A DNA stretch of 63,710 nucleotides, filler included, from Chrysochromulina tobinii (taxonomy: Eukaryota): the NCBI GenBank assembly GCA_001275005.1. It is 4 parts of 4 records of this genome, joined end to end, with 100 filler letters (N's around TTAATTAATTAA, not from the genome) between each part and the next. Parts side by side here need not be neighbours in the genome. Positions count along the whole stretch, not along the records: positions 47,171 to 63,710 come from JWZX01001079.1; 3 more parts are not named here. One strand, given 5' to 3'. The notes beneath the pieces are model-generated. The model was not told the origin of the DNA. It saw nothing but the letters and a program-made list of their open reading frames with translations, and made no database searches. A program made the translations under genes and the position numbers. Below, in pieces: positions 12,850-63,710 of this stretch; the first letter of the stretch is position 1; each line of letters opens with the position of its first letter.

Positions 12850-13932
12850 GGGTTAGGGGGGGTTTCCTATACAAATTGGGGGGAGTTTCCTATACAATAC
12901 GTATCCTGATGTATCCTATATGTATCCTGCATGTATCCTGTATGTATCCTGCAGGATACATGTATCCCGAAAGTATCCTGATGTATCTCAAATGTATCTT
13001 AAATGTATCTTACATGTTCTGTTACAATCCAAGAGAATACATGTATCTTGACATTTTGCATGTATTTAACACGTATCCCAAACGAGTCCAAGATACATTT
13101 TGGGATACACATGAGATACGTTACGATACATGTATCTTGGGCGCTTCCTTGGTGTCACACTGGATACATGTCAAGATACATCAGGATACGTGTATCTTGG
13201 ACTCTTCATCACGATACATTAGGATACACCGAGATACAAAATCACGATACATGTAACTTGGACGCGTCATGACGAATATATGTATATATGTGGGATACAT
13301 GCAAGCATTTATGCGGGATACATGCGGGATACATGTATCTGCAGTGGTTCCAGGATACATAGAGGATACATGCGGGATACATCAGGGATACATCATGAGA
13401 GACATGTATCTCAAATGTATGCAAAGAGGTACGTATCTGAGGTGCAAGATACATGCGAGATACATGCATGTTGCATGATACATGTATCCTCATCAGTATC
13501 CTCAGAGGTGATCAAGATACATACAGGATACATCCGAGATACATAGTGAGATACATAGTGAGATACATGTATCTCAACTGCATCGAGGAGAGAGATGTAT
13601 CTGATATGAAGGGATACATGCGGGATACATGCGGGATACATGCGGGATACATGCGAGATACATGTATCCTCAGTGATAATCAAGATACATGCTGGACACA
13701 TGCGAGATACATGCGGGATACATGCGGGATACATGCACGAGGATACATATCTCGGGGGTTGGGGGATGTAACAGAGCATGTAAGATACATTTGAGATACA
13801 TCAGGATACATTCGGGATACATTCGGGATACATGTATCCTTCAGGATACATGCAGGATACATGCAGGATACATAAGGATACGTATTGTATAGGAAACCAC
13901 CCCCAATTTGTTTAGGAACCCCCCCCTGACCC
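12850..13932. mobile_element. Non-autonomous foldback/MITE-like element with ~175-bp imperfect terminal inverted repeats built from GATACAT/ATGTATC subrepeats
   Basis: Left GGGTTAGGGGGGTTTCCTATACAAATTGGGGGGAGTTTCCTATACAATACGTATCC..TCTGTTACA matches the reverse complement of the right end (..TGTAACAGA..GGATACGTATTGTATAGGAAACCACCCCCAATTTGTTTAGGAACCCCCCCCTGACCC); AT-rich against the host background; no transposase; no TSD found. Confidence 0.8.
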
Positions 13933-36600: not shown

Positions 36601-39600
36601 ACTGCCCGTGCAAGGCGTCCGTCGTCGCATGCACCAAGTGCGTGCTCTACGCGATCGAGCGTGAGGTATTCACAAAGCTCGTGCTCCAAAAGTACAGGCA
36701 GCAGCGCATGCGCTTCGAGCAGCTCACGGCAGGCATCGCGCTCTTCGGCACGATGAACGAATTCGAGCGCGCCGCCCTCGCCGATGGCTTCGACGAGGTT
36801 GTCTTCACCGCCGGCGCCGCCATCATCAACGCGGGAGATCACGGGCAGACCTTTTACGTCGTCCTCGAGGGCTCCGCCGTGGCGGTCCAGGTGGACGCGA
36901 CAGGCGTTGAGGTGGTGCTCGAGCGCTACGGCGCGGGCGGCCACTTTGGCGAGCTCGCCCTACTCCACAACGAGAAGCGCGCAGCGAGTGTGGTCGCGGA
37001 GACTGAATGCAGGTGTATTGTGCTCCACAAGAGAGCCTTTGCGGCGGCGGCGGCTGTCTCGTCTGAGGCGGCGAAGAAGGCGGTGGCGGAGGAGGCGGCG
37101 AAGGCGGCGGAGGCGGCGGAGGCCGCAAAAGCAGCGGAGGACTCGGCCGCGGCGGAGGCCTTGGATCTGGCCAACAAGCTGAAAGCTGCCAAGGTCGACC
37201 TGGGCCTAGCCGACAATGTGGAAGAGCGACGAGGGCTGAAACGCAAGGTGGCGGAGCTAGAAGAGGCGCTGACGACAGCAGTGGCGGTCCAGAAGGTGGC
37301 GGCTAAGCTTAAGGGCAAGGCCGAGCGGGCGGCCGTGGCGGCGAGGGAGGCGGCCGAGAAGGCCGCGAGGGAGGCGACCCTGAAGGCGGCGAAGGAGGAG
37401 GAGAAGGCGGTATCTGAACGGGCTGAGAAGGAGGCGAGGGAGGCGGCCGAGAAGGTGGCGTCGGCCGCCGCCGCCGCAAAAGGAGGAGCGGCGCGAGCAC
37501 GTTGGGAACGCGCCCGGGGGCGATCGCAGGCGGTCTCGGCCTTGGTTTCGGCGGGTGGTGACGCGAAGGCTGTGGCCGAAGCGGCGGCGGCGGCTGAGAG
37601 GGCGGCCGCGGCGGCGATTGCAAAAGCGGCGGCCGAGAAAGCGGCGAGGGACGCTTCCGATCTGGCGAGGTTGCAGGCGGCCTCTGCGCTCGCAGAGGAG
37701 CAAGCGGCAGCCGAGGAGGCGGCGGCGGCCAGGGCCGTGATCGAAGCCGAGGCGGCTGAGGCGGCCGCGGAGGCTGAGCGCGCCGCGGCGGAGCGGGCGG
37801 CGGACGCGGCGGCGGTGGACCCAGCCGCGCTTCGGGAGCGAAAAGAGCGTGAGGCCGCTGCCAACGCGGACAAGGAGAGGCGCCTGAAGTTCGAAGCCAT
37901 GCAACGGGCGGAGGAAGCCGAGGAGGAGAGTGACGACGATCTTGGACTGTCCGACCTGTGGGATGTGGACGGTGACAATGCGCAGAAGATGGCAAAGAGT
38001 GCGGGAGTCTTCGGCCTGGTGAGCAAAGCGAAGAGAGGGTTCAAAGCGAAGGCCAAGGGTGCAGCCAAGGACAAGGACAAGGCTGCGCCACCTGCTGCCG
38101 CGCCGGCGGCCGCCAGGGCTGCCCCAGCCACCGCCCCGTTCGCGGCCCCGACCGCAGCACTAGCGACAAGCGCGGCGCCAGCGCTGAGCGCGGAGGCGCA
38201 GGCAGCGGCGGCGCTGAGTCTCTTGCCCTCGCCAAAGGCCGCTCTGCTGCCTGCGCTGCTCGCAGTGCTTCGCGAGAGCAGCAGCAGCGAGGAGGCTCAG
38301 AGCGACGCGCTGTACCAGCTTGCCGAACTCACCAACGATGCCTACGACGAGGAGGCGATCGCGCTGTGCGAGTACATGCGCGCCACGGGCGCCGTGCAGC
38401 TCATTGCCAGCCGTCTCAGTAGCCCTGTGGTCTCGATCCATCAATACGCGCTCATGCTCGTGGGCAATCTCGCATCTGTTGCTGTCGACCCTGATGCTGA
38501 GAAGACAAAGGTATTGCTCAAGACGGTGGGCGCCTTCGGTCTGCTGCTGCCACACATCTTTTCCGAGGATTATATGACGCTCTTGTACGCACTGGGCTCT
38601 GTACAAAATCTGTGCACCGAGATCGCGTACGTTGAGCAGCTGCAGCAGGCGGGTGGGCTCGAGCGACTGCAGGCGATCCTCCAGCTGAACGATCCGCAGC
38701 TCGAGCCGTTTGCACGCGGCTGCCTGACCAACGTGACGCAGACCAAAGTGGTGACCACCCTCCAGCGGCGTGTCGAGAAGCGTAGCGGCAACGCCGCCAG
38801 CACTATCCAAGCGGCCGCGCGGCGCTGGTTGGTTGGCTTCCGCGAGAGGCGACGTCTCGCAGCGTTCGAGGCGGCGACACCGGCGCAGGTATCTCAACCA
38901 GCATTGCAAGCTCCCGAAAGGCCCCAAACCCCTGCCGAGGTCGTCGTGCAGGCGGTGATCGCTCAGAGTGTCGAAGCCGTCTCAAGACCATCCACCGCCG
39001 AGTTCATGGCAAGGGAGGAGGCAGCGCTGATGGTTGAGCTTGCAAACGCTCAGAAGGTTCTCGCCGAGGCCGAAGCCGCCGAGAAGGCACTGGTCGAGGC
39101 TTCGGCGGCGGAGGAACTCAATCATTTCGAGGCACAATTGGAGGTCGAGGAGGCGACAGTCACAGTACCTTCTGCCACCACAGAAGTAGAGGTCCTGGCA
39201 GGGGCGACGGCGGCAGCGCCTACTGAGGTAGTGGCGGCGATTGTCGCAGCGCCTGCTGCCACCGCTGAGGGGGCGGCAACCGAAAAGGTGGCCGCGGCCG
39301 AGAAGGTCGCAGCAGCCGAGGAAAACGCGACGGCCGAGAAAAAAGCGCTGGCCGAGAAGGCGACGGAGATAGAAAAGGCGGCGGCCGAGGCGAAGGCGGC
39401 CGCTGAGACAGAGAAGGTGGCTGTGGCCGAGAAGGCGGCAGCTCAAAAGGCGGCGGCCGAGAGAGCGGCGGCCGAGAGGGCGGCGGCGGCCGAGAAGGCG
39501 GCAGCCGAAAGGGCGGTGGTGGCCGAGAAGGCCGCGGCCGAAAAGGCGGTGGCCGACAAGGTAGCGGCCGAGAAGGCAGCAGCCGAGAGGGCAGCAGCCG

Positions 39601-41234
39601 AGAGGGCGGCGGCCGAGAGGGCTGCGGCCGAGAAGGCAGCGGCCGAAAAGGCGACGGCCGAGAAGGCGGCGGCCGAGAAGGCGGCGGCCGAGACAGCGGC
39701 GGCGGCGGCACGTGAGGTGCTGGTGGAGGCGACGGTGCAGTGGGTGATGGCAGAGGCGCTGCAGTTGGAGGCACGGAGGCAGATGGAAGAGAGGCAACGA
39801 AGGGCTGCGGCGGCAGCGGCGGGCCGTCGAAAAGTGCACAAGGCGGCACATGCCATCCGTGCGACGATTCGAATGCATGCCCTAGCAGAGGAGACGAGGG
39901 CCATTTCGAGGGCCGAAAAGGCTGTGCTCATTCGCAAGCTCGCGCTCGAAGAGTCTGCCTACGCTCTCGCCGTCGTCTGGGACCTCGCAATGAAGGAGTG
40001 TGATCTGTTGGCCGCCGAGAGGGTGGCAGCCGAGGCCGCAGCGGCTGAGGCAGCGATGGAGTCCGATCCCAAGATGAGGGCGCTCTTCGACAAGATTCTG
40101 ACGGAGCCGAGTCTCGAGGGCACAACGCTCGTCGACATGATGCGGGCGCTCACGAAGGCTCGTGGGCACGTGGGCCTCGCGTTCCTTCACCTGCAAAGGG
40201 CTCATTCCGAGCCTCGACCAGCATTCATCTCAACAGTAGCACTTCCCTCGGCTCGCACTGAGGCCGAGACTACGGCAGCTAAGGAAGCGGCAGCAAAGAA
40301 GGCGGCGGCTCAGGCAGCTGCGGCCGGCGCGACGGGCGCCGAGGCGCCGCTGCCTGAGGGGTGGATGCAGGTCAAGGCACCCGACGGGCGGACTTACTAC
40401 TTGATTCAGGGAGGCGGCAAGCCGCAGTTCGAGCGTCCGACGGAGCCCGCATCCGCATCGTTCGGCCTATCGGAAGGGCGGATTCCGTTCGGATCGTGGC
40501 CTGCTCGCGGCATGACGCCTTTGGCCTCTCTGCCGCCGCTACCTTCCACTCGACGTACCCAGGCGTGGTACGACCGGCAAGAACAGCTCCAAGAAAGGTT
40601 GAATGCGGGGCGGCTGTTACAGGAGGCTGCTGAGCAGCCTTTGCCGCTTCCAGCCATTGCTGACATCCAGCCTCAGCTGTGGCCCTCGACCACTTGGGCG
40701 GGATACGACTCGGCGAAGCGGATGAGAGGCCGCCACGACGGCAGTAACAGTGCGCACGGAGGCCTGCTTGGGGGGTCAAATGCTGCCGGTGGAGCAACAA
40801 AGCTTATAGACCCGACCTCATTTGAAACGCCCACCGCGCCAAAGGTAGCAGCTACCTCCAAGGCGAGCCCGCGCGTGCGGATAGCGCGCCAACAGGCAGA
40901 GTACAAGGGCGACACTCATCAACCGAAGGAGGCGACAAGCTTGAGCCCCCAGCTGATCTTGCCCAACCTAACACCTCGCTCGGGGATGGGAGCTGCGCGA
41001 ACGGCAATGGAGCGCCAGTTGGCAGCGTACCATGAGATCTACGGACAAGACCAACGTGTTGTCCATCATCACCAGCGGCTCAAGCCAAACTTAGTCAGGC
41101 CTGCACTGTCAGCAGAGACGCGTCCAGAAGCCACACTTCTACCACACGTCAATGTGCTGGGAAGCGGGGCCGGGGGTAAAGGTAAGGGTACAAGTACGAA
41201 AAAGGCGCATGCGTACTTTGAAGCGTATGTATGA
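33645..41234 (+). CDS. 2529-aa multidomain protein: two ARM modules, IQ motifs, tandem cNMP-binding domains, WW domain, Ala/Glu/Lys coiled coils
   Basis: Uninterrupted ORF; IQ-like [11 protein letters not shown] and [12 protein letters not shown]; c[11 protein letters not shown] and [40 protein letters not shown]; (AEKAA)n. Confidence 0.85.
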
Positions 41235-47070: not shown

Positions 47071-47170
47071 NNNNNNNNNNNNNNNNNNNNNNNNNNNNNN
47101 NNNNNNNNNNNNNNTTAATTAATTAANNNNNNNNNNNNNNNNNNNNNNNNNNNNNNNNNNNNNNNNNNNN
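47071..47170. other. Assembly spacer
   Basis: 100-nt N/TTAATTAATTAA/N block. Confidence 0.98.
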
Positions 47171-48183
47171 CCCCCCCGCCGGCAGCCGCACCGGAGAGCG
47201 CCGCGTCGGGCAGCGCCGTGTCGGGCGCGGAGACCGGCGGGCTCGACGCCGCGCTGCGCGCCAATGTCGAGTCACAGCTCGAGCGGCTTCTGGCGCAGCT
47301 CGAAGATCTGGAAGAGCTCAAGGAGGACCTGTCGGAGGAGGAGTACGTCGAACGGCCTCAAATGGCCTCGGAGTGCCTCTTGATTGCCTCTTGATTGCCT
47401 CTGATTGCGTCTGATTGCGTCTGATGGCCTCGGAGTGCCTCTTGATTGCCACTGAGGACCTCTGAGAACACTTTCGAGTGCCTCCCTCATCATCTCTGAG
47501 TGCCTCCCTCATCATCTCTGAGTGCCTCCCTCATCATCTCTGAGTGCCTCCCTCATCATCTCTGATTGCCTCCCTCATCATCTCTGATTGCCTCCCTCAT
47601 CAGGTACAAGGCGACCAAGGAGGACACACTGGCGCAACTCAAGGAGTTCCAAACGTCCCTCGCCAAGATGGCCTCGGGCTCGATGACGCTGCAGTCGAAC
47701 CTCGAAAAGACGCGGCTCGCCGTCTCGGCGGCCGTCTCCGGCGCCTTCCAGACACCCGAGGTCAGCCGGCCCTTCGCCTCCACGCAGCCCGCCGCATGCA
47801 AGTGCTCACCACGGCGCCCTCCCCTCCCGTTTCCCCACAGGTCATCCGGCTCTTCGCCTCCAAGCAGCCCGCCGCGATGCGCCGCCGGCTCGCCGAGATG
47901 GAGCGAGATGTCAAGCTCGGCAAGCTCGCGGCCGCGGCCTTCGACGGCATGAAGTCCGAGATGCTGGTCGCACTCAAGAAGCTCGGGGAGCCGCTCAGCG
48001 CGAGCGAGGAGGCCTTCCTGGGCGCAAACAAGTCCGCGTCCCTCTCGGAGTTTGAGGCGGTCGATGATAATGCGGACCAGGTGAGCCAGCTGCCGGTGAA
48101 CCTCTGATTGCGTCTGATTGCGTCTGATTGCGTCTGATGGCCTCCCTCATCAGGTGAGCCAGCTGCCGGTGAACCTCTCGTGA
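47171..48183 (+). CDS. LZIC: LZIC (leucine zipper and ICAT-homologous) protein, 5' truncated; introns 47343-47603, 47761-47840, 48081-48153
   Basis: Spliced: NVESQLERLLAQLEDLEELKEDLSEEE|YKATKEDTLAQLKEF..AFQTPE|VIRLFASKQP..LKKLGEPLSASEEAFL. Confidence 0.9.
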
Positions 48184-48690
48184 ACGAATCGCCGGTGTGA
48201 ACGAAGTGTGAACCTCTCGTGAACGAAGCGCCGGGAGCACACACCGTGTGCGCATCGTTGACGCGTCGTCGCAGGCGCCGATGACGCGCGTCGTCGTGGG
48301 CAACGAAGCGCCGAAGACGCGTCGTCGTGGGCGCCGTGGGCGCCGAAGACGCGTCGTATTGGGCACAGTGGGCGCCGAAGACGCGTCGACGCGTCTCTGG
48401 GACTGCGGTGATGATGTGGAGATCGAGATCGAGATGGGAGTGCGAGCGAGGGGCAGCCTGGCAACTCTACACAGCGGGGCATCACGCGTTTATTCAGGAC
48501 GGCGAAAAACACAAAACTCGGCTCCAGCGTGTGTGAATCGGTAGGGTCGGAGACTAATTGGGGGGAAGAGTTCAGAAACACATTCACATTCACACATGCT
48601 CGAGTCGGCACCGCGCCTGCACACCGCGCCGCCGAGCCCCACTCACAGGAGGCCACAGTGCACATCATATCAGGGTGCGCAGCGCACGCG

Positions 48691-50388
48691 ATGACGACTT
48701 CCGCGTCACAGTGGATATACCCAAGTTTGGCGCTCAACTGCATCTTCTTCGTGCACCTCGTTGTGCGCGGCAATCTTGTCCCATGTAGTGCTGTGCCATG
48801 TTTCGTGGCGACGCCGTCTGCAAGTTCAGAGACCCCGTCTGCGAGGTCAGCGACCCCGTCTGCAAGCTCAGAGGCCGAATCCATGCCTCCAAGGGACCCA
48901 CAGAGTTTGCCAATCTGGGCCAGGTTCGCACGGTATCCAGGGCCCGATTGGAACAAGCTCTTGGCCGACGAGAAGGTGGAGCGAAAACCCCATCGAACTT
49001 CTCCGCCGACGCCGCCGTATCCGCCGCCAGGGCCCACTCAGACGGTTGGTTCGCCAACTTGCACGCATTTGCTGGAGTGCAGCCTCTCCAAGGGTATGCG
49101 GTCCAAGGTGTACCAAGCGTTCCAGAATGGATACACGCACCGGATCCCAGACGAACTTGGATACGAGAATGGCATCCGAGACCTCGCCGACGGCGGCAGC
49201 GAGCTCCTCGTCCCGATTCGAAAGCAAATCATGCCGCCCGCTGCCAACATCCAGCTTGACTGGAAGCCTGCGCCGTGGCCCACACGCATCGATCTCAACC
49301 ACCTCAACTGGGCAGCCCTTCCAAATGGGGAGAGGTTCCGCGAGTGTGGGAAATCGCATGCACTCACTAATGAAGTGCACTTATACTGCAAGTGCGTGCT
49401 CCGCTTGCGTCGACCGTTTGCTCCTGGAGCCCCCACCACCTCGAAGCGGGCGCCTCAGGAGCCGTCCTTTGTTTGCCCGCAGGTTTTTCACAAAGCAGGC
49501 CCTCTTGTGGAATAAGGACTATTGGCCGGGTGCGGAGCCCTACGACGACATCCCCGACCACGTGTTCGATCGGCCAGACGTGCGGCTGGTGCTTGATCTA
49601 GGTGCCGGCAACGGCAACCTCGCCGTCAACTTGTTCCGGCGATATGGCGATCGCGTCATCACGGTGTCCGCCACGCTCATCGTCGCCGCCGAGGCAGGCA
49701 CGCTCACGCCGCCCTTCCTGCAACGGATGACATGCAACTGATTACATGCTGATGACATGCAACTGATGACATGCAACTGATGACATGCTGATTACAGGCA
49801 CGCTCACGCCGCCCTTCATGCAACTGATCGCGGCGCGTGGCTTCCCCACTGTGGCGGTCGACATCTACTCATTCTTCCCCTTTGGTGAATCAACGTTTGA
49901 CGTGGTCCACACGAGCTGGGTCTATCACAGCGGCTTCACGCGCCACGCCATCATGGAGATGTGAGCACTCGCCACGTGATTCCACCCGGGCCTCACAAAC
50001 GCTGTCACGTGATTCGAACCTGGCCTCACAAACACGCTGTGTGCCTGGCTGAGCGGCGGTACCCGATCGGTTCCGTTGGGCAGGTACTGATTACAAATGA
50101 TTACATGCTGATTACATGCTGATTACATGCTGATTACCGTTGGGCAGGTACCGCGTGCTGCGCCCCGGCGGGTACTTGATCCATACGGTGTGGGATAAGA
50201 TGGCCTCCCTCCGGGGCACGCTGCTCCTCGAGTCGCTCGCCGCGAAGATGAATTGGAAGCTTCTCGCTCATTACGAGACCATGAAGGGGCATAATGTCAC
50301 CAAGGCGAGGCTCCGGGGGGACAAGGTGCCCTACGACTGCTACAAGACCGTCTACCAGATGCCGAGCTACAAGTACTCGAAGAGGTAG
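48691..50388 (+). CDS. Type II membrane class I SAM-dependent methyltransferase; introns 49392-49482, 49698-49797 (GC-AG), 49961-50147
   Basis: N-terminal hydrophobic anchor; VLDLGAGNG, PFMQLIAARG, FPFGESTFDVVH, EM|YRVLRPGGYL assembled across introns. Confidence 0.82.
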
Positions 50389-50732
50389 GAAGTCCTGCAG
50401 GTACGTGTGACTCAATACAGGCAAGGTGTGTAGATTCCAACGGGGGCTTTGAGCCACGACACCGGGTCACTGCAATGCCGATGTTCCACAGGCGACAACG
50501 AGCTATTACGTACAGTACATTTCTGTGTTTCTGTGATTTCGAATCGTCTTGATCTGTTTGTCAGTTGGCTGTTGCGCGGTTGTACGATCGGTAATAGTAC
50601 CTACACCCGAGATAGGCCGATGTCCGAACGAAATAGCGTCGTGCCGAGCGTTTTTCGCGTTCAACGCCCTCTCTCGCGACCTCCTTGGCGGGGAAGGCGA
50701 GCTGCTACAGGCTACTAGCCTCGCCGGAATCG

Positions 50733-53700
50733 ATGGCGCGCAAGACGCACAAAAAGTCGCTGCAAGAGTACATGGAAGAGAATGGGATTGGCGTCGGGGA
50801 TCCGGACGACGATGAGGAAAGCGTGGTGGCGCCCATTGTGCAGGAGACGCCGCGGCTCGTCACACGTGCCCTTCGGACGGAGCACCTGCAGCCGCTCATC
50901 GACCTCGTCTTCTCGGACAGCACCGAGGTGCAACGCAACGCGACGCGCTTGCTCGGCACGCTGGCCCTCAACGCCGATAACATCGACATCCTGATCGACT
51001 CTGGCTCGTTGGGGCCGCTGCTGACGATGGCAGGGTCGACCGACTCGTCGGTGCGGCGCGCGGCGCTTGCAGGCCTCGCGCACATGAGCTCACGCGACGA
51101 CATTCGGACGAAGCTTTGCGCGGTGGCCGGCGGGCTCCAGACGGTGGTCGCCGGCGTCACATGCAGCGACGGGCCGTCGAGGTTGGCCGCGGCCGAGTGC
51201 ATGGCCAACATCGCCACCTCCCTGAAGCTGCGTGGGAGGCTGATTGACAGCAAGGTGGGCGGGCTGCCCGCGCTGCTCTCGCTGCTCACGTCGCGCACGT
51301 CCGAGCTCAAGCGCTGGGGCATGCTCACGCTGCAGCGCCTCGCCGTCTGCCGGAAGACCAATGGTGCCATCATCACCACCAAAGACGACCCCGAAGGCGA
51401 CGGTTACGCGGACGAGCTACTTAAGGCAGGCGTGCTGCAGCCGCTGCTCACGATGCTCCGGGCGGGCACGATGAGTCTCGAGGAGGACCTGCGCACGCAG
51501 GCCATGTGCACCGTCTACTCTCTGGCCGACGCGAATGAGGAGATCAAGAAGAAGCTCGGCGAGCACCCGGTGAGGGCCGAGATTTCCCTGAATGACGAAC
51601 CCCTGATGAAACTGTGACGGAACTGTGACGAGCCCGATAGCTCGGCGAGCGCACCCGGTGTGAATGCCTCGACGAGAGCACACGGGCGAGTGTGCCATGG
51701 AGCGCCTTTGAGTGATGAGTGACGTTGATGATGAGTGGCGCTGATGAGTGTCTCTTGATCGCCTCTTGATCTTCCCTTGAGAGCCCCTGATGGCCCCTGA
51801 TGGCCCCTTGAGGGCCCCCTGAGAGCCTCCGATGGCCCCTTGAGGGCCATGGCCCCAGAATTGCAGTGGTCATCAGAATTGCAGGTGCTCGTGAAGGCCA
51901 TTGTGGGCTTGCTGACGACCACTGATTGCCTCTGATGACCACTGATTGCCTCCCTCATCAGGTGCTCATGAAGGCCATAGTGGGCTTGCTCACGCTGGAC
52001 GACCACGCGGGCACCGGCGCGACGCAGCGCGAGGCCTGCCGCACCGTCCAGCTGCTCGCGACGCGCGCCGACAATGTGTATCGCCTCCTCGGCGCTGGCT
52101 TGATCGTTTCACTCTCGATGCTCGCCCGCACCGAGAATCTCATCAAGAAGCAGTTTGCGAGCACGATGCTGCTACGGGTCGCTACGGAAGCGGGCTGCCG
52201 GCGCTCGCTGCTCGATGCCGGTGGCGCGCGCACGCTGTGCTTCCTCTGATTGCCTCTGATTGCCTCTGATTGCCTCTGATTGCCTCTGATTGCCTCCCTC
52301 ATCAGGTGGCGCGCGCACGCTGTGCTTCCTATGCCGCCCGTCGCTTCCTCGCAAGGTCGTCCGTCCCGCGGCGAACGCGATCTCACTGATGTGCAGCTCG
52401 GCCGAGTGCGTGCCGTCGCTGCTCGACACGGGCGCCGGCTCGGTGCTTGCGACGCTCGCGAGCTCGTCCGACCCGGAGATGCTCCTCGGCGGCTGCCAGG
52501 CGCTCGCCAACATGCTCGCGTGCATGGCGGAGGAGGCGGGGACGGTGGCCAAGGCGGTGAACCGCGCGGGCAGCCCGGTTGTGAACCGCGCGGGCAGCCC
52601 GGTTGTGTCGCGCCCCACCTCGCCAATCTCCCAAACCTCGGCCGAAGAAGACGAGGAGCGCCGTCCCGGGCGGGGCGCCACCGAACCGGAGGGGGCGCCG
52701 TCCCGGGCGCCCCCTCCCAAACCGGAGGGGGCGCCCACGAGCGCCGTCTCGAGCGCCGACCCGCTCGGCCGGGTGCGCGAGGCCGTCCGAGTGACCGACC
52801 AGCTGCATGCTGATGGCCTCCCTCATTGCATGCTGATGGCCTCCCTCATCAGGTGCGCGAGGCTGTCCGAGTGACCGACCAGCTGCTTCAGCAAGGCGCC
52901 CTCTCCGTCTTCCTGTCGGCCGCGACCTCCTCCGATCGCCAGCTGCAGCTGCATGCCTCCCGCGGCCTCAAATTCATCGCGATGCGCTCGCCACTCTTTG
53001 CGCGCGTCCTCGCCCGCAAGGGCGCCGCGCGCGCCCTCGCTGCGCTGCTGGGTGCCGCGCGTGAGGAAACGCTCCGGAACGCAGTAACGGCCCTCCACCT
53101 GATCACCACGGCGCTCTGTGAGGGCGTTGGGCGCGAGCCTCTCACGGCCAAGCGTCTCTCGACGGTGCGCGGAGGGCAGCTCTGATGGCATGCTGATTGC
53201 ATGCGGATTACATGCTGATGGCATGGTGATTACATGGTGATTACATGCGGATTACATCTCTGATCGCGTGCTGCTTGCCCATCTGCTCGCGTGCTGCTCG
53301 CCTCCCTCATTGCATGCTGCTCGCCTCCCTGATCAGGTGCGCGGGGTGCTCGAGCTCGGTGTGGTGGGCACACCCAAGGAGCTCTGGGCGCGCCTGAATG
53401 AGGACGGTGGGCTGCCCGCGGCGACGCTCCTTCGGCTCGCATGCCACTTTGAGGGGCTGCACGCCGAGGCGGGGGAGCGCTCGCGAGCGATACTCGAATT
53501 GCTCAAGCCGGGCTTGCTGCAGTCCCTCGACATCGACGACCCAAGACGCGCCAGCCAGTCGGCGAAGGCGATCGCTGAGCGCCGAGGGAGGAATAAATCC
53601 ATCGCCAAGGTCCAGAACCTGTTCCGCCTTTCTCGCAGCCTGAAGCCGGCCGCGGCCGACCCGTTCACCGCGTTCAGCCGACCGACTACCTCGGCGAACG

Positions 53701-54435
53701 CCACGGGCGCCGCCTCGGGCGCGGCCTCGAACTTTGCGTCGCTCGTGCGCGCGGCCAAGCTGGGCAACGGGCTCGTGGCGAACGACTCGCCGCGCTGGGC
53801 CAAGGCGTGGGGAGGCGCCTTTGGGGCCAAGGCGGGCTCGGCCGCGGCTGCCTCGGTACTGAACGCGCAAGCGACAGGCGCGGACGCGATCTCGAAGCTA
53901 ACCCTAACCCTAACCCTAACCCCAACCCTGACCCTAACCCTGACCCTGACCCTAACCAGGCGCGGACGCGCTGTCGAAGCTCAAGGAGGCCGCGGCCCAC
54001 GCACGGAAGGCGTCCCAAGAGGCCGGTCCCAAGTTCAAGTCGCTCGCGGCCGCTGCAGGCGCCCACGATGGCGCGGGGAAGCGGACGCTCTTCGCGATCC
54101 TGCACCAGCCTCGCCCGCCCGCGACGGCGCGTCCCGAGGCGAGCGGCGCACGCGCGCGAGCGGTCAGCCTCCTGGGAGCAGAGACCGCCTCGTCCTCAGC
54201 CGAGCCAGCCCAATCCGAAGCGCCAGGTGCGCCAGGAGCGCCGGCGGTCACCAAAGAGAGGCACACCGGTAGGCCTCCTGCTTTGGGATTGTGGCTCGGC
54301 GGCGCCGTCGGCACGAGCAGCGCTGCTGGAGCAGCTGCTGGGGCGATGGTGGTGGCGGCGCCCGAGAAGGAGAAGCGGATCTCGGCAGTGCGGCGCGCTC
54401 AGATGACTCTCGAGGCCCAGGATCTGACGCTTTAA
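50733..54435 (+). CDS. Armadillo-repeat protein; introns 51570-51961, 52221-52305, 52773-52852, 53165-53336, 53878-53959 (GC-AG)
   Basis: ARM repeats (LQPLIDLVFSDSTEVQRNATRLLGTLA, GGLPALLSLLTS); the five introns give a continuous frame to TAA at 54433-54435. Confidence 0.82.
53900..53959 (+). repeat. Interstitial telomere-type (CCCTAA/CCCTGA)n array forming the body of an intron
   Basis: AACCCTAACCCTAACCCTAACCCCAACCCTGACCCTAACCCTGACCCTGACCCTAACCAG. Confidence 0.92.
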
Positions 54436-54660
54436 GCGGGCGGGATTTCTTTTTTAGCTTGTCGACTAGTCAGAACTCGGACACTTGTACGGTAGGTGTG
54501 CGGTGTCCACAAAGATGTGTAAAAGATGTGCGGTGTTCACAAAATCCATCCCCCACCCCCTTCCCCCCTACGCATGCAAGAGTTTCCCACAGCCTGTGTT
54601 CACGCCGTGACTCGCGCGAAGGCGTGATTAGGCGCTCGCGGCCGAAAACAAGCGGGGGAA

Positions 54661-55881
54661 ATGCCCCGACCACCGCCACCGCCGGCTATGGACGTCGAGG
54701 ACATCCTCGTGCGCATGCGGCAGATGCTCAAGAAGCGTGGTGCGGTGGGCATCAGGGGACTGACGAGAAACTTTCAGATCTGCGACACCGACAAATCGGA
54801 GAAGCTCAACCTCGCCGAGTTGACTAAATGCGTCAACTTGTGCAAGCTCGACCTCTCGCAAGAGGAGGTCCGCGCACTGCACCGCCATTTCGATTCGTCC
54901 GGCGACGGACTGGTGAGCTTCGACGAGTTCGTCAAGACAGTGCGCGGTCGGATGAGCGAGCCACGCAAGAAGCTCGTGATCAAGTGCTTTGAGGCTCTCG
55001 ACCAGGCAGGCGACGGCAACGGCCAGCTGTCGGTGGCCGACTTGAAGCCGTACTTCAACGTCGAGCACGATCCTCGCTTCCTCACGGGCGAGAAGACGGC
55101 ACACGAGCTCCTCCAGGAGTTTGTCGACGGGTTCGAGCGAGGCCAGGGAGGCGGAGACGGCGTCATCGGCATCGACGAGTGGATCGGCTATTATGAGGAG
55201 CTGTCAGCGGGGATCGACGACGACGACTACTTCGGTGTGATGCTAGTGAACGCGTGGAGTGCACTGAAGAAAAAAGGGCCGAATGGCGAGGAGGTGCCAG
55301 CCATCCAGTATGTGTGCGAGGGCGACATCGACGTGCTCGAGCAGATCCTTCGGAAGAACATCTTCCAAAAGTCGGTCGGTACGAATGAGGTGCGTGCGCT
55401 GAAGGAGACGTTCAAGCGCTTTGACCAGGACAATAGCGGCGAGGTCAACTTTCGCGAGTTTTGTCGAGCGATGGAGTGCTTCGGGCTCTCCGTGTCGCAG
55501 CCTGGTCAAAAGGGCTCTGGAGGCGTGCCGCCCGATGTGCTGCGCGGCCTCTTCAACCGTTACAACACTGACGGGTCCGAGTGCATCAGCTACCTCGAGT
55601 TTACGAGCGGGCTGTTCCAGCGTGAGGCGGAGGCGCGGAGCAGCGACCCCGCGTTCACCACTGGCAACGGCGCCAATCTCACGCTGCCAAACCTCGTGCG
55701 CGACTATGATGCCGTGGCCGCCTCGGCAGCAGGGCTCGCACCACCGCCGCGCTGTATGCCTGACACGCGGAAATCACCCCTCCTCCGACCCGACGGTAAA
55801 GGGGGGAGCCTTGGCAATTACCCAGTGCGGCCCGATCGCGTCGTACGTCCCGAAGAGCGGGCGAAGGGCTTCTTCCGGTAA
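54661..55881 (+). CDS. Calcyphosin-like multi-EF-hand protein
   Basis: RGAVGIRGL..F...D, FDSSGDGLVSFDEF..VRGRMSEPRK, LDQAGDG, DGVIGIDEWIGYYEELSAGIDDDDYF, plus an extra EF pair FDQDNSGEVNFREF. Confidence 0.9.
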   Translation: MPRPPPPPAMDVEDILVRMRQMLKKRGAVGIRGLTRNFQICDTDKSEKLNLAELTKCVNLCKLDLSQEEVRALHRHFDSSGDGLVSFDEFVKTVRGRMSEPRKKLVIKCFEALDQAGDGNGQLSVADLKPYFNVEHDPRFLTGEKTAHELLQEFVDGFERGQGGGDGVIGIDEWIGYYEELSAGIDDDDYFGVMLVNAWSALKKKGPNGEEVPAIQYVCEGDIDVLEQILRKNIFQKSVGTNEVRALKETFKRFDQDNSGEVNFREFCRAMECFGLSVSQPGQKGSGGVPPDVLRGLFNRYNTDGSECISYLEFTSGLFQREAEARSSDPAFTTGNGANLTLPNLVRDYDAVAASAAGLAPPPRCMPDTRKSPLLRPDGKGGSLGNYPVRPDRVVRPEERAKGFFR

Positions 55882-56335
55882 CGGAGAGGAGCGGAGTCAG
55901 TCGGTAACCCTAACCGGAAGCGCATACCGCGATGTTCGTCGAGCTGGTTGCCTTATATAAGCTCTGAGTCTCTGTACACTCTCGGAGCTGCGCCTCGGAT
56001 CGTAAGAAGTAGCGGGGACTAGTGGTTGAGCTTATAGTTTCAAAATCCGGACTTATAACGTAAAACGTAAAAGTCAAAACGGCATATCTCGGGATACCGG
56101 TTACCGCTTCGTTCGATCGCAATTGTGAATTGACTAGCGTATACGACCGTATTACGTTAATAGCGGGTCCGAGTGTAGACGCTGCCTGTCGTCTCCCTGC
56201 AGGAGGCGTGAGTAGGAGATGCACACATCGGGTGATGACGTGAGGCGCGGTCGAGAGACGTGCCGCAGCTGCACACCTGTGCGTCTAGAATGATCTTGAA
56301 TGATCGTGCGCGTCGTCTGGCGGCCGCGGCGTGGG

Positions 56336-59300
56336 TCATTGCCGCAGCGTGACATAGGGCGGCTCATCGTTGGCGCAGCGGCAGAAGCCGCATGGCACGA
56401 TCGCCATCAGATCGGCTGGAGGGCGGAGAGTGCCCTCCTTCCCGCGGCACTGGTAGCACGCAGAGGGCAGGTTGCAGTTGTTTGCACGGCCCGTGTCGCT
56501 TCCTAATTTGGCACGGCCCGTGTCGAGCGCGGCCGACTGGTTGTTCCAGAGCTGCTTGAACTCGTGCGGCAGGTGGTCGATGGTCTTGGCGCACCTGATG
56601 AGGGGGTGGGGTGTCGGAGGCCATCAGACGCAATCAGCGGCCATTAGCGGCCATCAGCGGCCATCAGCGGCCATCAGCGCACTGGTAAGAGTAGACGTTC
56701 CACTCGGCCTGCTGGCTGAACCAGCACTGTGCATACTCGGGGTGTCGCGCCATGATGTCTCGTCGGTTGCGCGCAAATTGGGCACAGTTCCATGCAGTGT
56801 AGAGGCCAGTGAAGATCGGGTCGTGGCGCGCGCGCTGGTTGCCCGGGTGCTTGACCACAGAGTCGCCCGTGACGAAGTGGAACGTGAGCCGCGGCGAGAG
56901 CAACGCCATCCGACAGCCCGCGTGCGCATGCAACGCCTGCATCAGGTCCGTTGCGATCATTGAGACGCCCACCTGATGAGGGAGGCAATCAGTATGCCAT
57001 CAGAGAGGCAATCAGCATGCCATCAGAGACGCCCACCTGATGAGGGCTCGCCATCATTCGCCATCATTCGCCATCATTCGCCATCAATCGTCATCATTCG
57101 CCATCATTCGCCATCAATCGTCATCATTCGCCATCATTAGTCATCAATCGTCATCACCATTGTGAAACCGAGTGAGAGCTGCGGCACCCAGCGGCGCGGG
57201 AAGGTCCAACAGTCGTGACCTGGATGGGCGAGGCCCGTCCCACGCCATCCGAGAGCTTGCTCCACGCCGAAGGTGACGGGAGCGTGCTCGTACTCCTCTC
57301 TGATGAAGCTGATTGGAATGTCGGGCATCAGCTGTGCCAACGGGTAGAACGGGTAGGGGGAGGGGCGAGAGGGAGGGCAGGGGAAGGGGGTGACGAGGAG
57401 GGAGGTAACCTCAGGAGCACACCCAAAGCACATCGGGAGCTCATCGGGAGCTCATCGGGAGCTCATCGGGAGCTCATCGGGAGCTCATCGGGAGCTCATC
57501 GGGAGCTCATCGGGAGCTCACCTGCAGCTGACGCGCGAGCTTGAGGTAGAACGGCGCCTGCACGCCAATGTCGATGTTTGAGTACGTCAGGTGCTCTCCC
57601 TCGCCCTTGAGGTAGCCGGCGTACCTGATGAGGGAGGCAATCGGATGCAATCTCCTGAGGGGCGGCGTAACTGATGAGGGAGGCTTTTTGATGCGAGCGG
57701 CCATCCGAGGCCATCGGTGGCAATCAGCAGGCAAACCACGTACAGGATCATGTTGAGGAAGGGGAGCTTGGCGTGATGACGGAAGCTCGGGAGCAGCGTC
57801 GCGACCGACACGTTGAGCAGCGCGACGGCGAAGCCCTGCTGTGCGCACTGCGGCAGCCGGGCAGCGTCTTCGGGGAACATGGCGCAGACCACATCGACGC
57901 GCACGCCCTGGGTGTTTGCGAGGGCGACGGCGTGCGAGATGGAGGCGATGGTGATCTCTTGCGCGCGCGCATGCTCGGCGTCGTGCTCGGAGTAGAACGG
58001 GTTGATCACGTGCGTGATCGAGATGTTCTGCGCGCGCCGCGGCGGCGCCGCACGCGCCGCCCACTCGGAGAACCAATGCTCAGCACGGCGCGGCGGCTCG
58101 GGCTGCAGCACGCGCACGACTGGCTGGCGGACGAATTCTTGGGTCCACGCGCCGCAGCAGCGTGGCGGCTCGGCGCTCGACTTTGCCTCGCGGAGTCGTG
58201 TCTCGATGAAGGTCTTGCGCACCTGGACAGAAGGAGGCGCGCCATCAGCGGCAATCAAGGGAGATCGCACCTGGACAGAGGGGGCGCGCCATCAGCGGCA
58301 ATCAAGGGAGATTGCACCTCGTCCGACCAGGCGGAGGTCGTGCCACCGTCCATCGGCGCTGTCGCATTGCTCTTCTTCTTGGGCTTCGCCTTGAGGGAGA
58401 GGGTGAAGGCGCGCTGTACCGAGCTGATGGGTACCTCAAGGAACTCGGCCAACGGCGCCGGGTACCTGAAGCAAGGGGGGCGCCGTGGTGGGCATGGGTG
58501 CCGTTAAGGCGCCGTGGTGGGCATATGCATGCCGTGGCGGGTACTTGAAGCAAGGGGGGCGCAATCAGCGGCCATCCGCGGCAATCGGCTGTCGTCAGTG
58601 GAACTCAGAGGCACTTAGAGACACACAGAGGCACTCAGTGGCACACAGAGGCCGTCAGAGGCCATCAGAGGCACTCAGTGGCACCCAGAGGCGCTCAGGT
58701 GCACTTCGGCGCACCGCTCAGGGCGCAAAAGCATGTCCGTGTAGTTGACGACGCGGTACTCCTCCGCGCGGAGCATCTGCAGCTGTGAATACATCTGGTC
58801 GAGCTGTGACAAGAAGAGGCTCACCTGTGGTTGGCGTAGTGCGTGGCGCCGTGGTGAGCACATGCATGCCGACGCGTGCACGCGCGCCGTGGTGAGCATG
58901 CGCATGCCGACGCGTGCGCTCGCTGTGACATGAGGCGAGGCGAGGCGAGGCGGCTCTCACCTGCTGGATATCATCAGAGGTCATCAGGGAGGTCATCAGA
59001 TGTCATCAGCGAGGCGAGGCGGCTCTCACCTGCTGGATATCATCAGAGGTCATCAGGGAGGTCATCAGATGTCATCAGCGAGGCGAGGCGGCTCTCACCT
59101 GCTTGTGCAGCTTGAAGGTGCGGCCAGCCCGCCGCCAGATCTTTGGGAGCCCGCGGTTGTTCATCGACATGATCGCGTCGATCGGGTCGCGGTACAGCAC
59201 GATCACCTTGAGCCGCACGCCGAGCAGGTCGCACATGTACACGATGTCCGCCAGGTCGGGGTAGTGGGTTCCGTCCTCGGTCTCGTTCGACGAGCGAGAA

Positions 59301-60166
59301 AAGGGATACGAAAACATCTGGCCTACGGGCTGGAAGGAGCCGTTATTGGATCGGCCGTCCAGCAGCTGGCCCGCCAGCTGCTGCTGCATCCCGCTGATCC
59401 ACGAGCAGTGCCGCTGACGCGAGATGCGGAAGCACGTGCGCGCGCAGAAGGCGGGGTGCTTGTGGTGCGAGTGGGCCTGACGGACCCATTCGGCGAAGGC
59501 CTCGAGGGCGGCCCAGAACGTGGCTGGGTCGTGGTGCTTCGGGTCCCACCAGAGCGACTGGAACACCTGCTCCTGCACCAGCGACATGGGCATCAGCTCG
59601 GGCAGCCGCATCATGAGCGCGGTGATGAAGTGGTGGCCTGTGCCCTCGGCGCCGGCGACGAAGACAAGCTGCCGTTGGCTATCGCTGAGCGGCTTGCTGT
59701 GGTCGGCGGGCTGCTGGGGCTTCACGTACGGCCGCCAGAAGGATGTGTCGAGCGGCGTCTCGATGGACGCGCGCCGCTTCACGACCTCGAGGAAGGCCTC
59801 CTGCTGCGCCTCGGCCGAAAGCCGCTGCGGAGGCGGAGGCGGAGGCGGGCTGCTGAGATCGGGCGGCGTTGGAAACCCGGTGGGCGAGAGGGAGGAGGAA
59901 AAGGAAGATGGTGATGATGATGAGGAGGAGCTGATGTGGTCCACGGTTGGGAGCAGAAGCTCGTGCTGCAGCAGCACGCACGACAGCGCCGCAGCCGAGA
60001 GCGACGCGGTCGCGAGCATCATGAGCTTGACGACGCCGAGTGGCGCCTCGCACTCGCGATCGGCGCGACGGTCGTGGCGGGCATGCTGGGCGGGGAGCAG
60101 GCGGCTGGAGGAGGCGGTGGAGGAGGTGGTGGTGGCGGTGGCGGCTGCGTCGGAGAGCGTGGGCAT
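56336..60166 (-). CDS. Type II membrane protein with a sulfotransferase-like domain and a second, possibly glycan-modifying, domain; introns 58825-59098, 58466-58714, 58223-58317, 57625-57743, 57332-57521, 56973-57157, 56595-56682
   Basis: TM anchor; PAPS-loop-like FVAGAEGTGHH and KVIVLYRDPIDAIMS; frame restored across seven GT-AG introns to TGA at 56336. Confidence 0.75.
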
Positions 60167-60390
60167 AGAGGCGGAGCCAAGTCGGTGTGAAGGGGTGAAG
60201 AGATTTGTTGAGGGTCACCCCTTTACACACGAGAGCACGAATTACATGTATGGCTCCTCTGCTCAAGAGTCGCTACGCACGAAGTGTGGTGGCGAACCTT
60301 TGATACCGAAGATGCTCGGCAACTGTTTGGGGTTCGCAAGTTAGCATGCGATTATAAGTTGTTGATCGCAAGTGTTGGAGGATACTTTCC

Positions 60391-60463
60391 TTCCCTATAG
60401 TCTAGTTGGTTAGGATAACCCGCTTTCACCGGGTCGACCTGGGTTCGAGTCCCAGTGGGGAAA
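60391..60463 (+). tRNA. tRNA-Glu (anticodon TTC)
   Basis: Acceptor TTCCCTA/TGGGGAA; D-arm; anticodon stem ACCCG/CGGGT with CT-TTC-AC loop (60425-60427); T-arm CTGGG-TTCGAGT-CCCAG. Confidence 0.93.
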
Positions 60464-60824
60464 AAAAAAAACTTGCTTCCTTTGTCAACCTCTTTTGCAC
60501 CTGTCCGGATCCGACGAGTCCCAGTGGGTCCGGATCCGTGCGAAATGACGCGCCCCGGGCGGCCTCCCCGCCCCCGCGCCCCCGGGTGCGGGCGGTGGGC
60601 CCGCCCCCGCGTTGGGGTCGTGGCTCGTGCCGCGCCGCGGGGGGAACCATGCCGCATGCGGGGATGGGGGAACTCTTACTAAACCGGGCGGCGTGGGATC
60701 TAGAGCATCTTTGGCCCGTTCGATTACGATTTCGTCCTATAAGTATCACCAAAACAATGCGCAGCATGCGTGTATGGGGCACGGTAGCCGCGACGCCCCT
60801 CGTGTGTCCTCTGAGTCCACCTTC

Positions 60825-63710
60825 TCAACTGAGAGAAGTTTTCTCGAGCGCGCCGCTCAGCTTGCTTGTTGCCCCATCGGCGCCGTCGCGGGCGGCGCGC
60901 GCCGCGCCGAGCGCACTCGAGAGGTGGATGATCCACAAGTTACGTTCCTCCTCAGTCGGGGCGGCAAGCACGACGCCGCCGTCGGGCGCGCCGTCCCGAG
61001 CGGTGAGGCGGAACGCGTAGGGCAGATTGTCCGACGGAGGCTGCGACGACCAGTCATCAGAGGTCGTCAGAGGTCATCAAAGGTCATCAGAGGTCATCAG
61101 AGGTCATCAGGGCAGATTGTCCGACGGAGGCTCTGGGGAAATGGGTGCTACGACCAGTGGGGCAGGGGAGGGGGCGCCCAGGACGACGCACGGTTGAGGC
61201 GCGCGTCAGCACAGATCAGAACGCGGCGCCGCCACGCGCGCTCGCGGCACTGTGGGGAGATCGGGGAGATCGATGGGAGATCGATGGGAGATCGATGGGA
61301 TAAGAGGGGGTCGCGTCGTCCCGGGCAGCGCACCGTGGCTTGCTCCACCCGATCGAAGCCGGAGAGCGGTACGATGCCGCGCGCGTGCTGCGGAGGGTCG
61401 TCGGCGTTCTGGTAGTACACGATCGTGCCCTCGTCGCGCAGGCGGAAGTGGCGAGCGACCCAATCCCGTGCCTGCCCTGTCTCCGCCTCGCTCCGCTGCG
61501 CAATGTGCACCTGATGAGGGAGGCAATCAGCATCCCATCAGAGAGGCAATCAGAGGCCATCCTGATCGAGCAGTCTCCGCCTCGCTCGCACTGATGAGGG
61601 AGGCAATCGGCATCCCATCAGAGATGCACTCGGCACCTTGGAGGCTCGCTTATAGAGGAGGCCGCTCAACTCGGTGCCTCGCGATGTGGCGTCTTCGGCC
61701 GCACTGGCGGAGCTACTCGGTACTTTGATGACCTCTGATTGCCTGGCATGAGTGGAAACTCCCCCGCCGGCGGTCGCGGCGGTCGCGACGGGCAGCGGCG
61801 AAGAGGGCGGCGCCACGGCGGACGAGGAAGCCGACAGCTGCGCGCCACAGGCGCAGAGGACGCGTATCCAGTCATCGCGTTCCCGCGCCGAGTCCGACGC
61901 GAGGTGGTACCTGATGAGGGAAGCCATCCGAGGTCATCAGAGGTTATCAAGAGGCAATCAGGTGAGCGGTGCCTGATGAGGGAAGCCTTTAGGGAAGCCA
62001 TTCCTCGGAGGTCACATCAGAGGCACCACTCGGCAGGTCATCCGAGGTCATCCGAGGTCATCCGAGGCCATCCGAGGTCATCCGAGGTCATCCGAGGTCA
62101 TCAGGGGCCATGCGTACGTCCGATTGCTCGTGTGCACCGCAAACGAATAGTGGCGGGCAAGCGAATTCTCTCCCTCGCCATGAGGCTGGATGATCAGTGG
62201 CGTGGGCCGCGCGCCGGCGCCATTGCTCATCACGGCGCTATGGCTCGACTCGCGACCACCGTTGGTGCCGCCGCCGCCGCTGCCGTGCGCCACGGCCGCG
62301 CCCGCACCGCCGTGGTGAGCACTTGCATGCGCGGGAGCGGCCGCGCCCGCACCGCCGTCGGGTGCCGTGGCGCCATAGTGGGCGCCGTAGTGGGCGCCGC
62401 TGCTCAGCTCGGCGCCGCTGTCAGACTTGCCGAACGCCCTTACACTGGCTGACGGGCTCGAGCCGCCGCTGATCGAGATGACGCCGAGAGAGAGGGGGCG
62501 GGGCGTCGTGGTGAGCGCTTGCATGCAACGCACGCCATCAGAGGCAATCAACGCACCTGCTCGAGCGGCACCCACTCCAACTTCTGATGAGGGACACAAT
62601 CACATGCAATCAGAGGCACTCAAGGCACCTGATCGAGATGACGCCGAGAGGCTGGAATGGGTTGGACATCTCGGCCGCGTAGTAGTAGAAGAGCTCGCCG
62701 TCGCACAGGCAAAAGTAGCGCCTCTTCCAGGACGGGACCCGCCGCCCCTTTTTGTAGAGATGGCCCTGCGAACCGAGGCCACGGGATGCGATGAGATGAA
62801 TTGGGAGATGCGATGAGATGCATTGGGAGATGCGATGAGATGCATTGGGATGCGATGAGATACGCCGAGTGACCACTCCGGGGTCACTCGGCGTCAGAGT
62901 GGTCACTCGGCGTCACTCAGCCGTCACTCAGCCGTCACTCTGCGGCCACTCAGCGGCCGCTCTGAGGAGCTCTCAGCGGCACCCACCTGCTTGGTGCACA
63001 CTCGATGGAGTGACTGGTGCAGCGCCGTCTCGTCTTCGCCGAACTCGGCGCCGTGTTGGGCGTCTGCCTCCACAAAGTAGCAGAAGAGCGACGAGGCCGC
63101 CAGCGCCGGGATGGCCACGCACTGCTGCAGGTAGCGCTCGAGCGCCACGCGTCGCTCCTCGACGAAGCTCGGGTGAAGGTTGCCGAAGGCGCGCTTCGCT
63201 GGGAGGGCCTGCGGCACTAGCGGGCCGAACTCCTTGCGCAGCAGCTGGTCCAGCAGGTTGAAGTGCTTGTACCTGTGGGGAGAGGCGAGGGCGCCGTGGT
63301 GAGCGCGTGCATGCACGGCAGGCCATCAGCATGCAATCAACGTACCGTCGCTCGGAGCGAGAGAGGGCGCCGGGGTGAGCGCTTGCATGCACGGCAGGCC
63401 ATCAGCATGCAATCAACGTACCGTCGCTCGGATCGCAGCGTCGTCTGCACGCCGTGCACGAGCAGCACGGAGTCGACCAGGTACGTGACGTACTCGTTGC
63501 CATGCCCACCCTCGCGCTGACGCTGGGTACCGGCGAGGCGCACCGAGTGGAGCACAACGTCCTTTGATCGCGCACGCAGCTCGGTGCCCGTCGGCGACAA
63601 GGGCGGCCCTCGCCCCTCGAGCGCCGTGGTGAGCGCCTCGTCGCCCGCGTGCATGCCCACACCGATCGTGAGCGCTGTGGTGAGCAGCCCGCCGCCGAGC
63701 TCACCACGGC
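60825..63710 (-). CDS. PX + two PH domain protein, 5' end beyond the window; introns 63273-63421, 62766-62986, 62469-62628, 61911-62117, 61511-61636, 61041-61333
   Basis: PX: YVTYLV..ERR|YKHFNLL..LPAKR..FVEERRVALERYLQ; PH1: GHLYKKGRRVPSWKRRYFCL..RT|YHLASDSARERDDWI; PH2: SGLLYKR..WVARHFRL..LAAPTEEERNLWI. Confidence 0.87.

Follow-up and report, generated by a model that had tools for sequence, protein, structure and literature searches.

How genomes gain new spliceosomal introns other than through bursts of transposons has been asked for a long time, since for most such introns no source can be found. The introner-like elements of Symbiodinium and Polarella glacialis have target duplications of fixed length, 4 or 8 nt in the accessible parts of the reports (bioRxiv 10.1101/2020.10.14.339549; PMC9860276). 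The intron described here, at 52221-52305 of a stretch of Chrysochromulina tobinii DNA, follows the same logic as Symbiodinium and Polarella classes 4/5 and 6/8/10 as presented there, in that target duplication gives the 5' splice site, the insert provides the 3' splice site, with the mRNA left unchanged. Unlike those elements, as far as these parts describe them, it has a duplication of 26 nt (8-35 nt in its sister introns) and a body of variable length built from branch-like units in tandem, and where the Symbiodinium elements carry terminal inverted repeats it has at most a 5-nt inverted end. Family fam24 of Emiliania huxleyi (5 copies) is entered in the supplement of PMC12130899 as 'co-opt 5' carry 3'' with '10bp terminal direct repeats', mechanism unknown; like our intron it belongs to a haptophyte, co-opts the donor and carries the acceptor, and it differs, by description and not by sequence, in an automated duplication call of 2 nt. 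Family 5 of Chrysochromulina sp. TARA, under the same genus label, is also an intron family with target duplication, but in the accessible part of PMC9860276 its polarity is opposite (it carries the 5' site and co-opts the 3' site) and its duplication is 4 nt.

In Daphnia pulex, polymorphic new introns with direct repeats on either side have been ascribed to staggered-break repair in the passages available (PMC3443670, PMC4974935). Our intron resembles them as a probable gain, likely polymorphic, flanked by direct repeats, and is likewise read as gap filling around inserted DNA, whereas the Daphnia repeats are short and a source is given for 1 of 21 introns; here a long repeat supplies the donor and the filler is an acceptor end common to introns. 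Drosophila has no excess of repeats at introns in the part of PMC3296678 that bears on it. In boundary-duplication introns ('mirage' or potato type), duplicated exon sequence is also spliced away, and in potato the acceptor signals derive from a parental intron; unlike in potato or in AG|GT duplications, the acceptor piece here lies outside the duplicated segment. Because the target site reads CCG|GT rather than AG|GT, an acceptor cannot come from the duplication. The tandem-duplication intron of Rogers, which takes both sites from a duplicated AGGT (PMC4974935, in the part available), was rejected for this site, where the copies share only the G leftward. Replitrons (PMC10288648) and stwintrons (PMC8469720), as outlined in the accessible text, do not fit the build either.

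The build is not described in the available parts of PMC10288648, PMC8379373, PMC2784329, PMC12480563, PMC11282704 and PMC8469720, and no description of it was found in the literature searched; subscription papers and preprint supplements, which lay outside that search, may bear on novelty. The supplement of a 2025 introner screen gives 0 families for C. tobinii (PMC12130899), that of a 2022 introner survey names the species only in its list of surveyed genomes, and the accessible text of the paper on the C. tobinii genome (PMC4580454) has a single mention of introns. The intron works like introners that take the donor from the target duplication, yet it lacks the short fixed duplication (3-9 nt) and the terminal inverted repeat of at least 6 nt by which introners are recognised. 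It likely represents a route of intron gain by a donor-making duplication that published introner screens do not list for C. tobinii.

The 85-nt intron and its host gene

The window, i.e., the whole stretch of 63,710 nt that was analysed, is composed of four pieces with N spacers between them, and the target intron lies in the last piece (about 47161-63710). The host gene (50733-54438, plus strand), read in frame after removing five introns, has six exons and encodes a 963-aa armadillo-repeat protein; the first 782 aa of the spliced model are identical to C. tobinii KOO34821.1. The target is intron 2 of this gene (52221-52305, plus strand), an 85-nt GT-AG intron in phase 1, which when kept leads to a stop at codon 375 and when removed restores the open frame. 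In RNA run X14, a contig of 379 nt joins 52220 to 52306 and skips all 85 nt; its aligned part starts at 52305, and its loose upstream end is exactly 52190-52219. The bridging contig is found in one of the four RNA runs (X14), one of which (X17) has no cover at the joint. In X15 and X16 contigs begin at 52305 with 4 loose letters, which is consistent with splicing and not proof of it; X15 also has a contig across the unspliced 3' junction of the intron, and another of its contigs skips intron 1 (51570-51961). In a broader read alignment over 47200-54480, where the joints were swamped by family repeats, the 85-nt skip was unlisted, and the freshwater run X21 had no cover at the target site. By its GT...AG ends and its removal from the mRNA, the target is a U2-type spliceosomal intron.

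As the earlier note had stated, the intron splits exactly into 25, 50 and 10 nt with zero mismatches. Its first part, 52221-52245, is identical to 52306-52330 (25/25), and the direct repeat is 26 nt when the G at 52220/52305 is counted and 25 nt otherwise. The left copy (52220-52245, plus strand) reproduces the start of the downstream exon and is the source of the GT donor, and the right copy (52305-52330, plus strand) is composed of the acceptor G and the first 25 nt of exon 3. The second part is an array (52246-52295, plus strand) of five exact CTGATTGCCT units, each with a CTGAT that resembles a branch site, and six such putative branch motifs (CTGAT/CTCAT) occur in the intron in all. The E. 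huxleyi genome paper reportedly describes intronic repeats of 10-11 nt as well. The third part (52296-52305, plus strand) is the family 3' end, CCCTCATCAG, which includes the acceptor AG, and the final 20-22 nt of the intron are identical to the ends of four other introns in the window. The 10-nt periodicity is perfect over 52243-52296 (5.4 copies), and since it already holds from 52243, the CCT at 52243-52245 (plus strand) belongs to both the exon copy and the array, which bears out the microhomology at this junction that had been pointed out before. The 60-nt insert reads CTGAT...ATCAG, a 5-nt inverted repeat, and folds weakly (-2.9 kcal/mol); the whole intron is without an inverted repeat.

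Introns of the same build in the window

A scan of both strands for GT/GC...YAG stretches whose start repeats the sequence behind them gave 19 matches (13 plus, 6 minus), and five block shuffles (plus strand only) gave 0. Seven matches are introns of the same build, all within 47761-53959; the other 12 are coding repeats, tandemly duplicated introns or array self-matches. The exon-copy lengths over nine introns are 35, 25, 31, 33, 25, 34, 8, 22 and 11 nt, with 0-3 mismatches. On the plus strand, the probable intron at 47761-47840 has a 35-nt exon copy (3 mismatches) and a non-tandem family end, and that at 48081-48153, also probable, has a 25-nt exact copy and a CTGATTGCGT array. A GC-AG intron of a methyltransferase gene (49698-49797) has a 31-nt copy (2 mismatches), and its repeat unit, read by eye, contains 12 nt of local exon. 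At 51885-51961 a 33-nt copy (3 mismatches) with repeats is stacked on the 3' end of the intron 51570-51961, and the intron at 52773-52852 is composed of a 34-nt copy (1 mismatch) and a 23-mer repeated twice. An older-looking intron (53165-53336), which is removed in KOO34821.1, starts with an 8-nt exact copy and is then diverged, and a probable GC-AG intron at 53878-53959 has a 22-nt copy (2 mismatches) followed by a (CCCTAA/CCCTGA)n array. On the minus strand, an 11-nt copy with 23-mer repeats appears to sit on an existing acceptor at 56973-57036. At least four unrelated insert types thus share one build, namely CTGATTGCCT, CATGCAACTGATGA, CCCTAA and the non-tandem end. The (CCCTAA)n array at 53878-53959 we take to be a telomere-like repeat; its CTAAC units match a branch consensus, and telomeric insertion at a break is possible for this intron.

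The overlaps between copy and array in eight scored introns are 3, 3, 1, 3, 3, 0, 2 and 4 nt. An overlap of at least 3 nt is found in five of the eight, as compared to 0.05-0.13 expected per junction (two-sided null; binomial 2e-5 to 1e-3), a small sample whose array periods and intron map were chosen manually and in which 47761 (no array) and 61040 were left out. The recurrence of such junctions claimed in the earlier note therefore holds, with changes to single cases: the overlap TGC at 52806 is 3 nt against the array's own period, as described; that at 48105 is 3 nt (TCT) and would be CCTCT only if the donor unit ended in GCCT; and that at 53899 is CT (2 nt), not GCT. Taken as products, these introns are joined exactly on their 3' side (G|GT or G|GC), vary in duplication length and have a ragged 5' junction with microhomology.

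The sequence CCCTCATCAG occurs 15 times, always in the last piece and in intron sense, and 0 times in the other 47 kb; GCCTCCCTCATCAG has 18 matches with 1 mismatch allowed, vs 0.01 expected. In a hand-made map of 28 introns, of which two are shown spliced by RNA, four are removed in KOO34821.1 and the rest are inferred, 19 have a 14-mer in common with another mapped intron. As in introners, a repeated family of similar introns is present, with the similarity confined to the 3' part. Over 58.9 kb, family 14-mers turn up outside the mapped introns at 3 places; all three belong to a single gene, and one lies antisense within an open frame. No family words were found in intergenic DNA or antisense within introns in these 58.9 kb, where the intron-sense count is circular by construction. 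At 61727-61745, 19 nt equal two family units, antisense in the open coding frame of a minus-strand gene, with no flanking duplication seen. The family introns are concentrated in the last piece as compared to 1-47071, and the long genes at 1921-6460 and 33646-41230 are by eye intronless and without the family motif.

Scans of viral and prokaryote sequences covered 56 loci and flagged 4, among them one further example (L008 = L034, 14-nt copy), a contig-end fragment (L012) and one likely chance match. Five viral contigs (L059-L063, about 48% GC) have two or three CTGATTGCGT-like units without the acceptor end, about as many as chance and independent repeats could give.

Other duplications were seen in the window. 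At 62461-62628 (minus strand) and 50085-50147 the polarity is opposite, the intron 3' end being a copy of upstream sequence (22 nt of exon and 11 nt of an acceptor, respectively), so that the duplication provides the AG. At 58961-59098 and 58223-58317 (minus strand), short introns of 69 nt and 47 nt are tandemly duplicated whole, with no exon between. A foldback-like element of about 1.1 kb lies between genes at 12850-13932, with inverted arms that span 91 nt at 91% complementarity and with other, nested arms; it is made of GGATACATGC-type 11-mers, whose unit resembles by eye (9/11) the intronic GATTACATGC 11-mer at 53182-53278. A tRNA-Glu(TTC) gene was found at 60391-60463, and the Rfam and tRNA scans gave nothing besides it.

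The intron site in relatives

Where a protein called on a raw contig ends within an unspliced intron, it reflects the state of the genome. An allele that lacks only the target intron is predicted to give a product of 273 aa ending in intron 3, as compared to 93 aa for the window allele, and three of the eight protein matches fit this prediction, i.e., P0061 (263/268 aligned residues identical to the predicted product; cluster of 6), P0062 (243/266) and P0063 (241/261). P0062 begins in the tail of intron 1 and stops in intron 3, as expected of an allele with the introns on either side but without the target. These called proteins indicate that genomes of relatives have alleles without the target intron, which partly spliced RNA or an assembler jump over the 26 nt could mimic. 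Gain is the simpler reading, because two more distant alleles also lack the intron, and the target is probably a gain rather than a loss; precise loss via the direct repeat could likewise make empty alleles. The claim that the intron is very recent and possibly polymorphic stands as far as these three proteins read through the site, at the protein level; the identity over 25 nt dates the event only loosely. The same intron in diverged form did not turn up in distant relatives, and spliced RNA was found (the X14 contig spans the joint), two outcomes on which the earlier reading had been staked.

Presence/absence variation among close relatives, as deduced from P0061-P0063, P0055/58, P0013 and P0019-P0031, also concerns two sister introns. 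The 52773-52852 intron is missing in P0055/P0058, both of which stop in intron 4, and present in P0061-P0064; absent from near alleles (P0055/58) and present in more distant ones (P0062/63), it shows that precise loss or recombination also occurs. Strains appear to differ in the unit number of its repeat as well (P0061/62 end in LIAC*, the window in LIRCARLSE*). The sole mismatch between its 34-nt copy and the exon lies in the exon, at 52864, and P0050, P0054, P0063 and P0064 fit the intron's letter, so that the intron copy keeps the ancestral state. The site 49698-49797 is read through by 13 of the 15 members listed of a 77-member cluster, which stop in the next intron, and the other two of these 15 start inside the intron, like the window's own ORF; a DNA contig of the freshwater run X21 skips 49698-49797. 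These empty versions may be paralogues, the gene apparently having a second copy in the culture. In the culture DNA, 48683-50350 has a second copy, about 5-7% diverged and at similar depth, and the RNA contigs mostly match this other copy.

The assemblies L004 and L007 carry an identical intron; over 47700-60336 they do not differ from the window at any base, and are thus the same strain and not independent evidence. They are two of the seven loci found by a motif scan of metagenomes, the rest being four chance matches and one intronless homologue (L001, about 72% identity), which is probably cDNA and hence says nothing on the genomic state.

Discussion

With a probability of roughly 0.85, the intron is real, built of an exon copy and a family end, and recent. 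From the features seen directly, namely splicing at the boundaries, the 26-nt direct repeat, the shared 3' end and the CCT overlap, we infer a mechanism, and to an origin by repair of a staggered break at G|GT, in which the 3' end of another intron was copied and slippage followed, we give even odds. Nicks offset by about 25 nt would be filled in and the exon start thereby duplicated; the broken end would then anneal by 3-4 nt (G|GTG on the right, CCT on the left) to a second intron of the family, in the form of DNA or of nascent RNA, from which the branch repeat and CAG would be copied in. Slippage would subsequently change the unit number, and selection would retain the events whose duplicate begins with GT or GC, because splicing then restores the mRNA exactly. 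As each product ends in CAG|GT, it would in turn serve as template for a further event, and no dedicated transposase would be needed. Break repair is favoured because unrelated inserts share the build, one repeat unit is mixed with local exon, and there is neither a tail nor a clear inverted repeat. Indeed, several unrelated inserts of the same build fit an opportunistic process better than one element, and the local exon sequence inside the 49698 repeat unit is as expected from repeated template switches.

Several points weigh against break repair, among them the 5-nt inverted repeat of the insert and the pattern at 52773, which shows that precise loss or recombination also takes place. Target-primed reverse transcription leaves a fixed 3' end, a ragged 5' end with microhomology and a variable duplication, and the fixed 3' end, the variable duplication and the 5' microhomology of these introns equally mark that process. 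Blind DNA repair would also be expected to leave intergenic and antisense copies; as no intergenic copies were found in the 58.9 kb, the process must be transcription-linked, or such copies have been purged.

A possible reading, held tentatively, is retroposition, by which a non-LTR reverse transcriptase would nick the template strand at G|GT, prime on an RNA that ends in CCCTCATCAG, be it SINE-like or an excised intron, copy a 5'-truncated piece and join it by microhomology, with a long variable target duplication. It agrees with the exact 3' end common to the introns and with the variable 5' end, its microhomology and the variable duplication length, and it explains more easily than break repair why the family is found only in sense within introns. 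One introner family of Pavlovales is classed as non-LTR and 'co-opt 5' carry 3'' in the accessible part of PMC12130899. On the other hand, the insert ends in CCCTCATCAG and bears neither a poly(A) nor a simple-repeat tail there, and the number of unrelated insert types and the mixing of the 49698 unit with local exon sequence speak against retroposition. Stalling at the lariat branch was rejected, since the junctions, judged by eye, fall elsewhere than at the branch A, and so lends it no support.

An origin as a miniature DNA transposon, an introner bounded by CTGAT...ATCAG that an integrase with long staggered cuts would have inserted, is unlikely. The inverted ends of the 60-nt insert, the point just before a CT that most junction windows include by eye, the splice-site logic of Symbiodinium and Polarella classes 4/5/6/8/10 and the foldback-like element of 11-mers at 12850-13932 all point to such an element, but the duplications of known introners are 3-9 nt and fixed per family, as against 8-35 nt here. 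The inverted repeat of 5 nt falls below the 6-nt criterion given in the accessible part of PMC9860276 and is absent from the CCCTAA and non-tandem types, and the weak folding of the insert also counts against this origin.

Also improbable is the remodelling of an old intron, whose 5' part would have been replaced by an exon copy through a template switch from spliced cDNA or a boundary duplication, the empty alleles then being precise losses via the direct repeat. Duplicated boundaries that sit on existing acceptors are frequent here (51885, 56973, 50085, 58961), the 52773 pattern requires loss or recombination, and products starting with MCSS (P0050, P0054, P0064, P0055, P0058) may derive from intron-bearing strains. 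Against it are three different alleles without the target intron, two of them more distant, and a copy, array and end that are all mismatch-free. A parental intron end directly upstream of the copy is present at 51885 and 56973 and absent at the target, where the coding exon runs in frame into the copy and the homologues show no additional residue at the site, so no older donor remains. An assembly artefact, in which mis-joined repeat reads gave the duplicate and the array, is very improbable: repeat lengths can be wrong, as the 22-mer array at 47476-47602 is collapsed (5.8 copies in the window vs about 12 in L004, the same strain), but the intron is identical in L004 and L007, X13 DNA contigs enter the array from the exons on both sides, and the X15 contig crosses the unspliced 3' junction.

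Coming back to the favoured repair of a staggered break, the source of both intron halves is visible in each intron here. The mechanism is testable, the intron being real, spliced, and likely recent and polymorphic; strains appear to differ at three sites within 3.2 kb, and the alga is culturable. Screens for end-to-end similarity would miss such introns, because an exon copy specific to its locus makes up 11-44% of each (less in the oldest-looking one, 8/172 nt) and tandem repeat makes up the remainder. A transposon-free making of introns, in which nicks in transcribed genes are repaired on branch-and-acceptor ends of introns already there, these being nascent or excised RNA, and in which this same repair turns a duplicate of the exon start into a donor, is a doubtful extension of these observations. 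If it is true, acceptor ends would propagate themselves, on the sense strand only, reversibly via their own direct repeats, and would still be segregating in lake populations.
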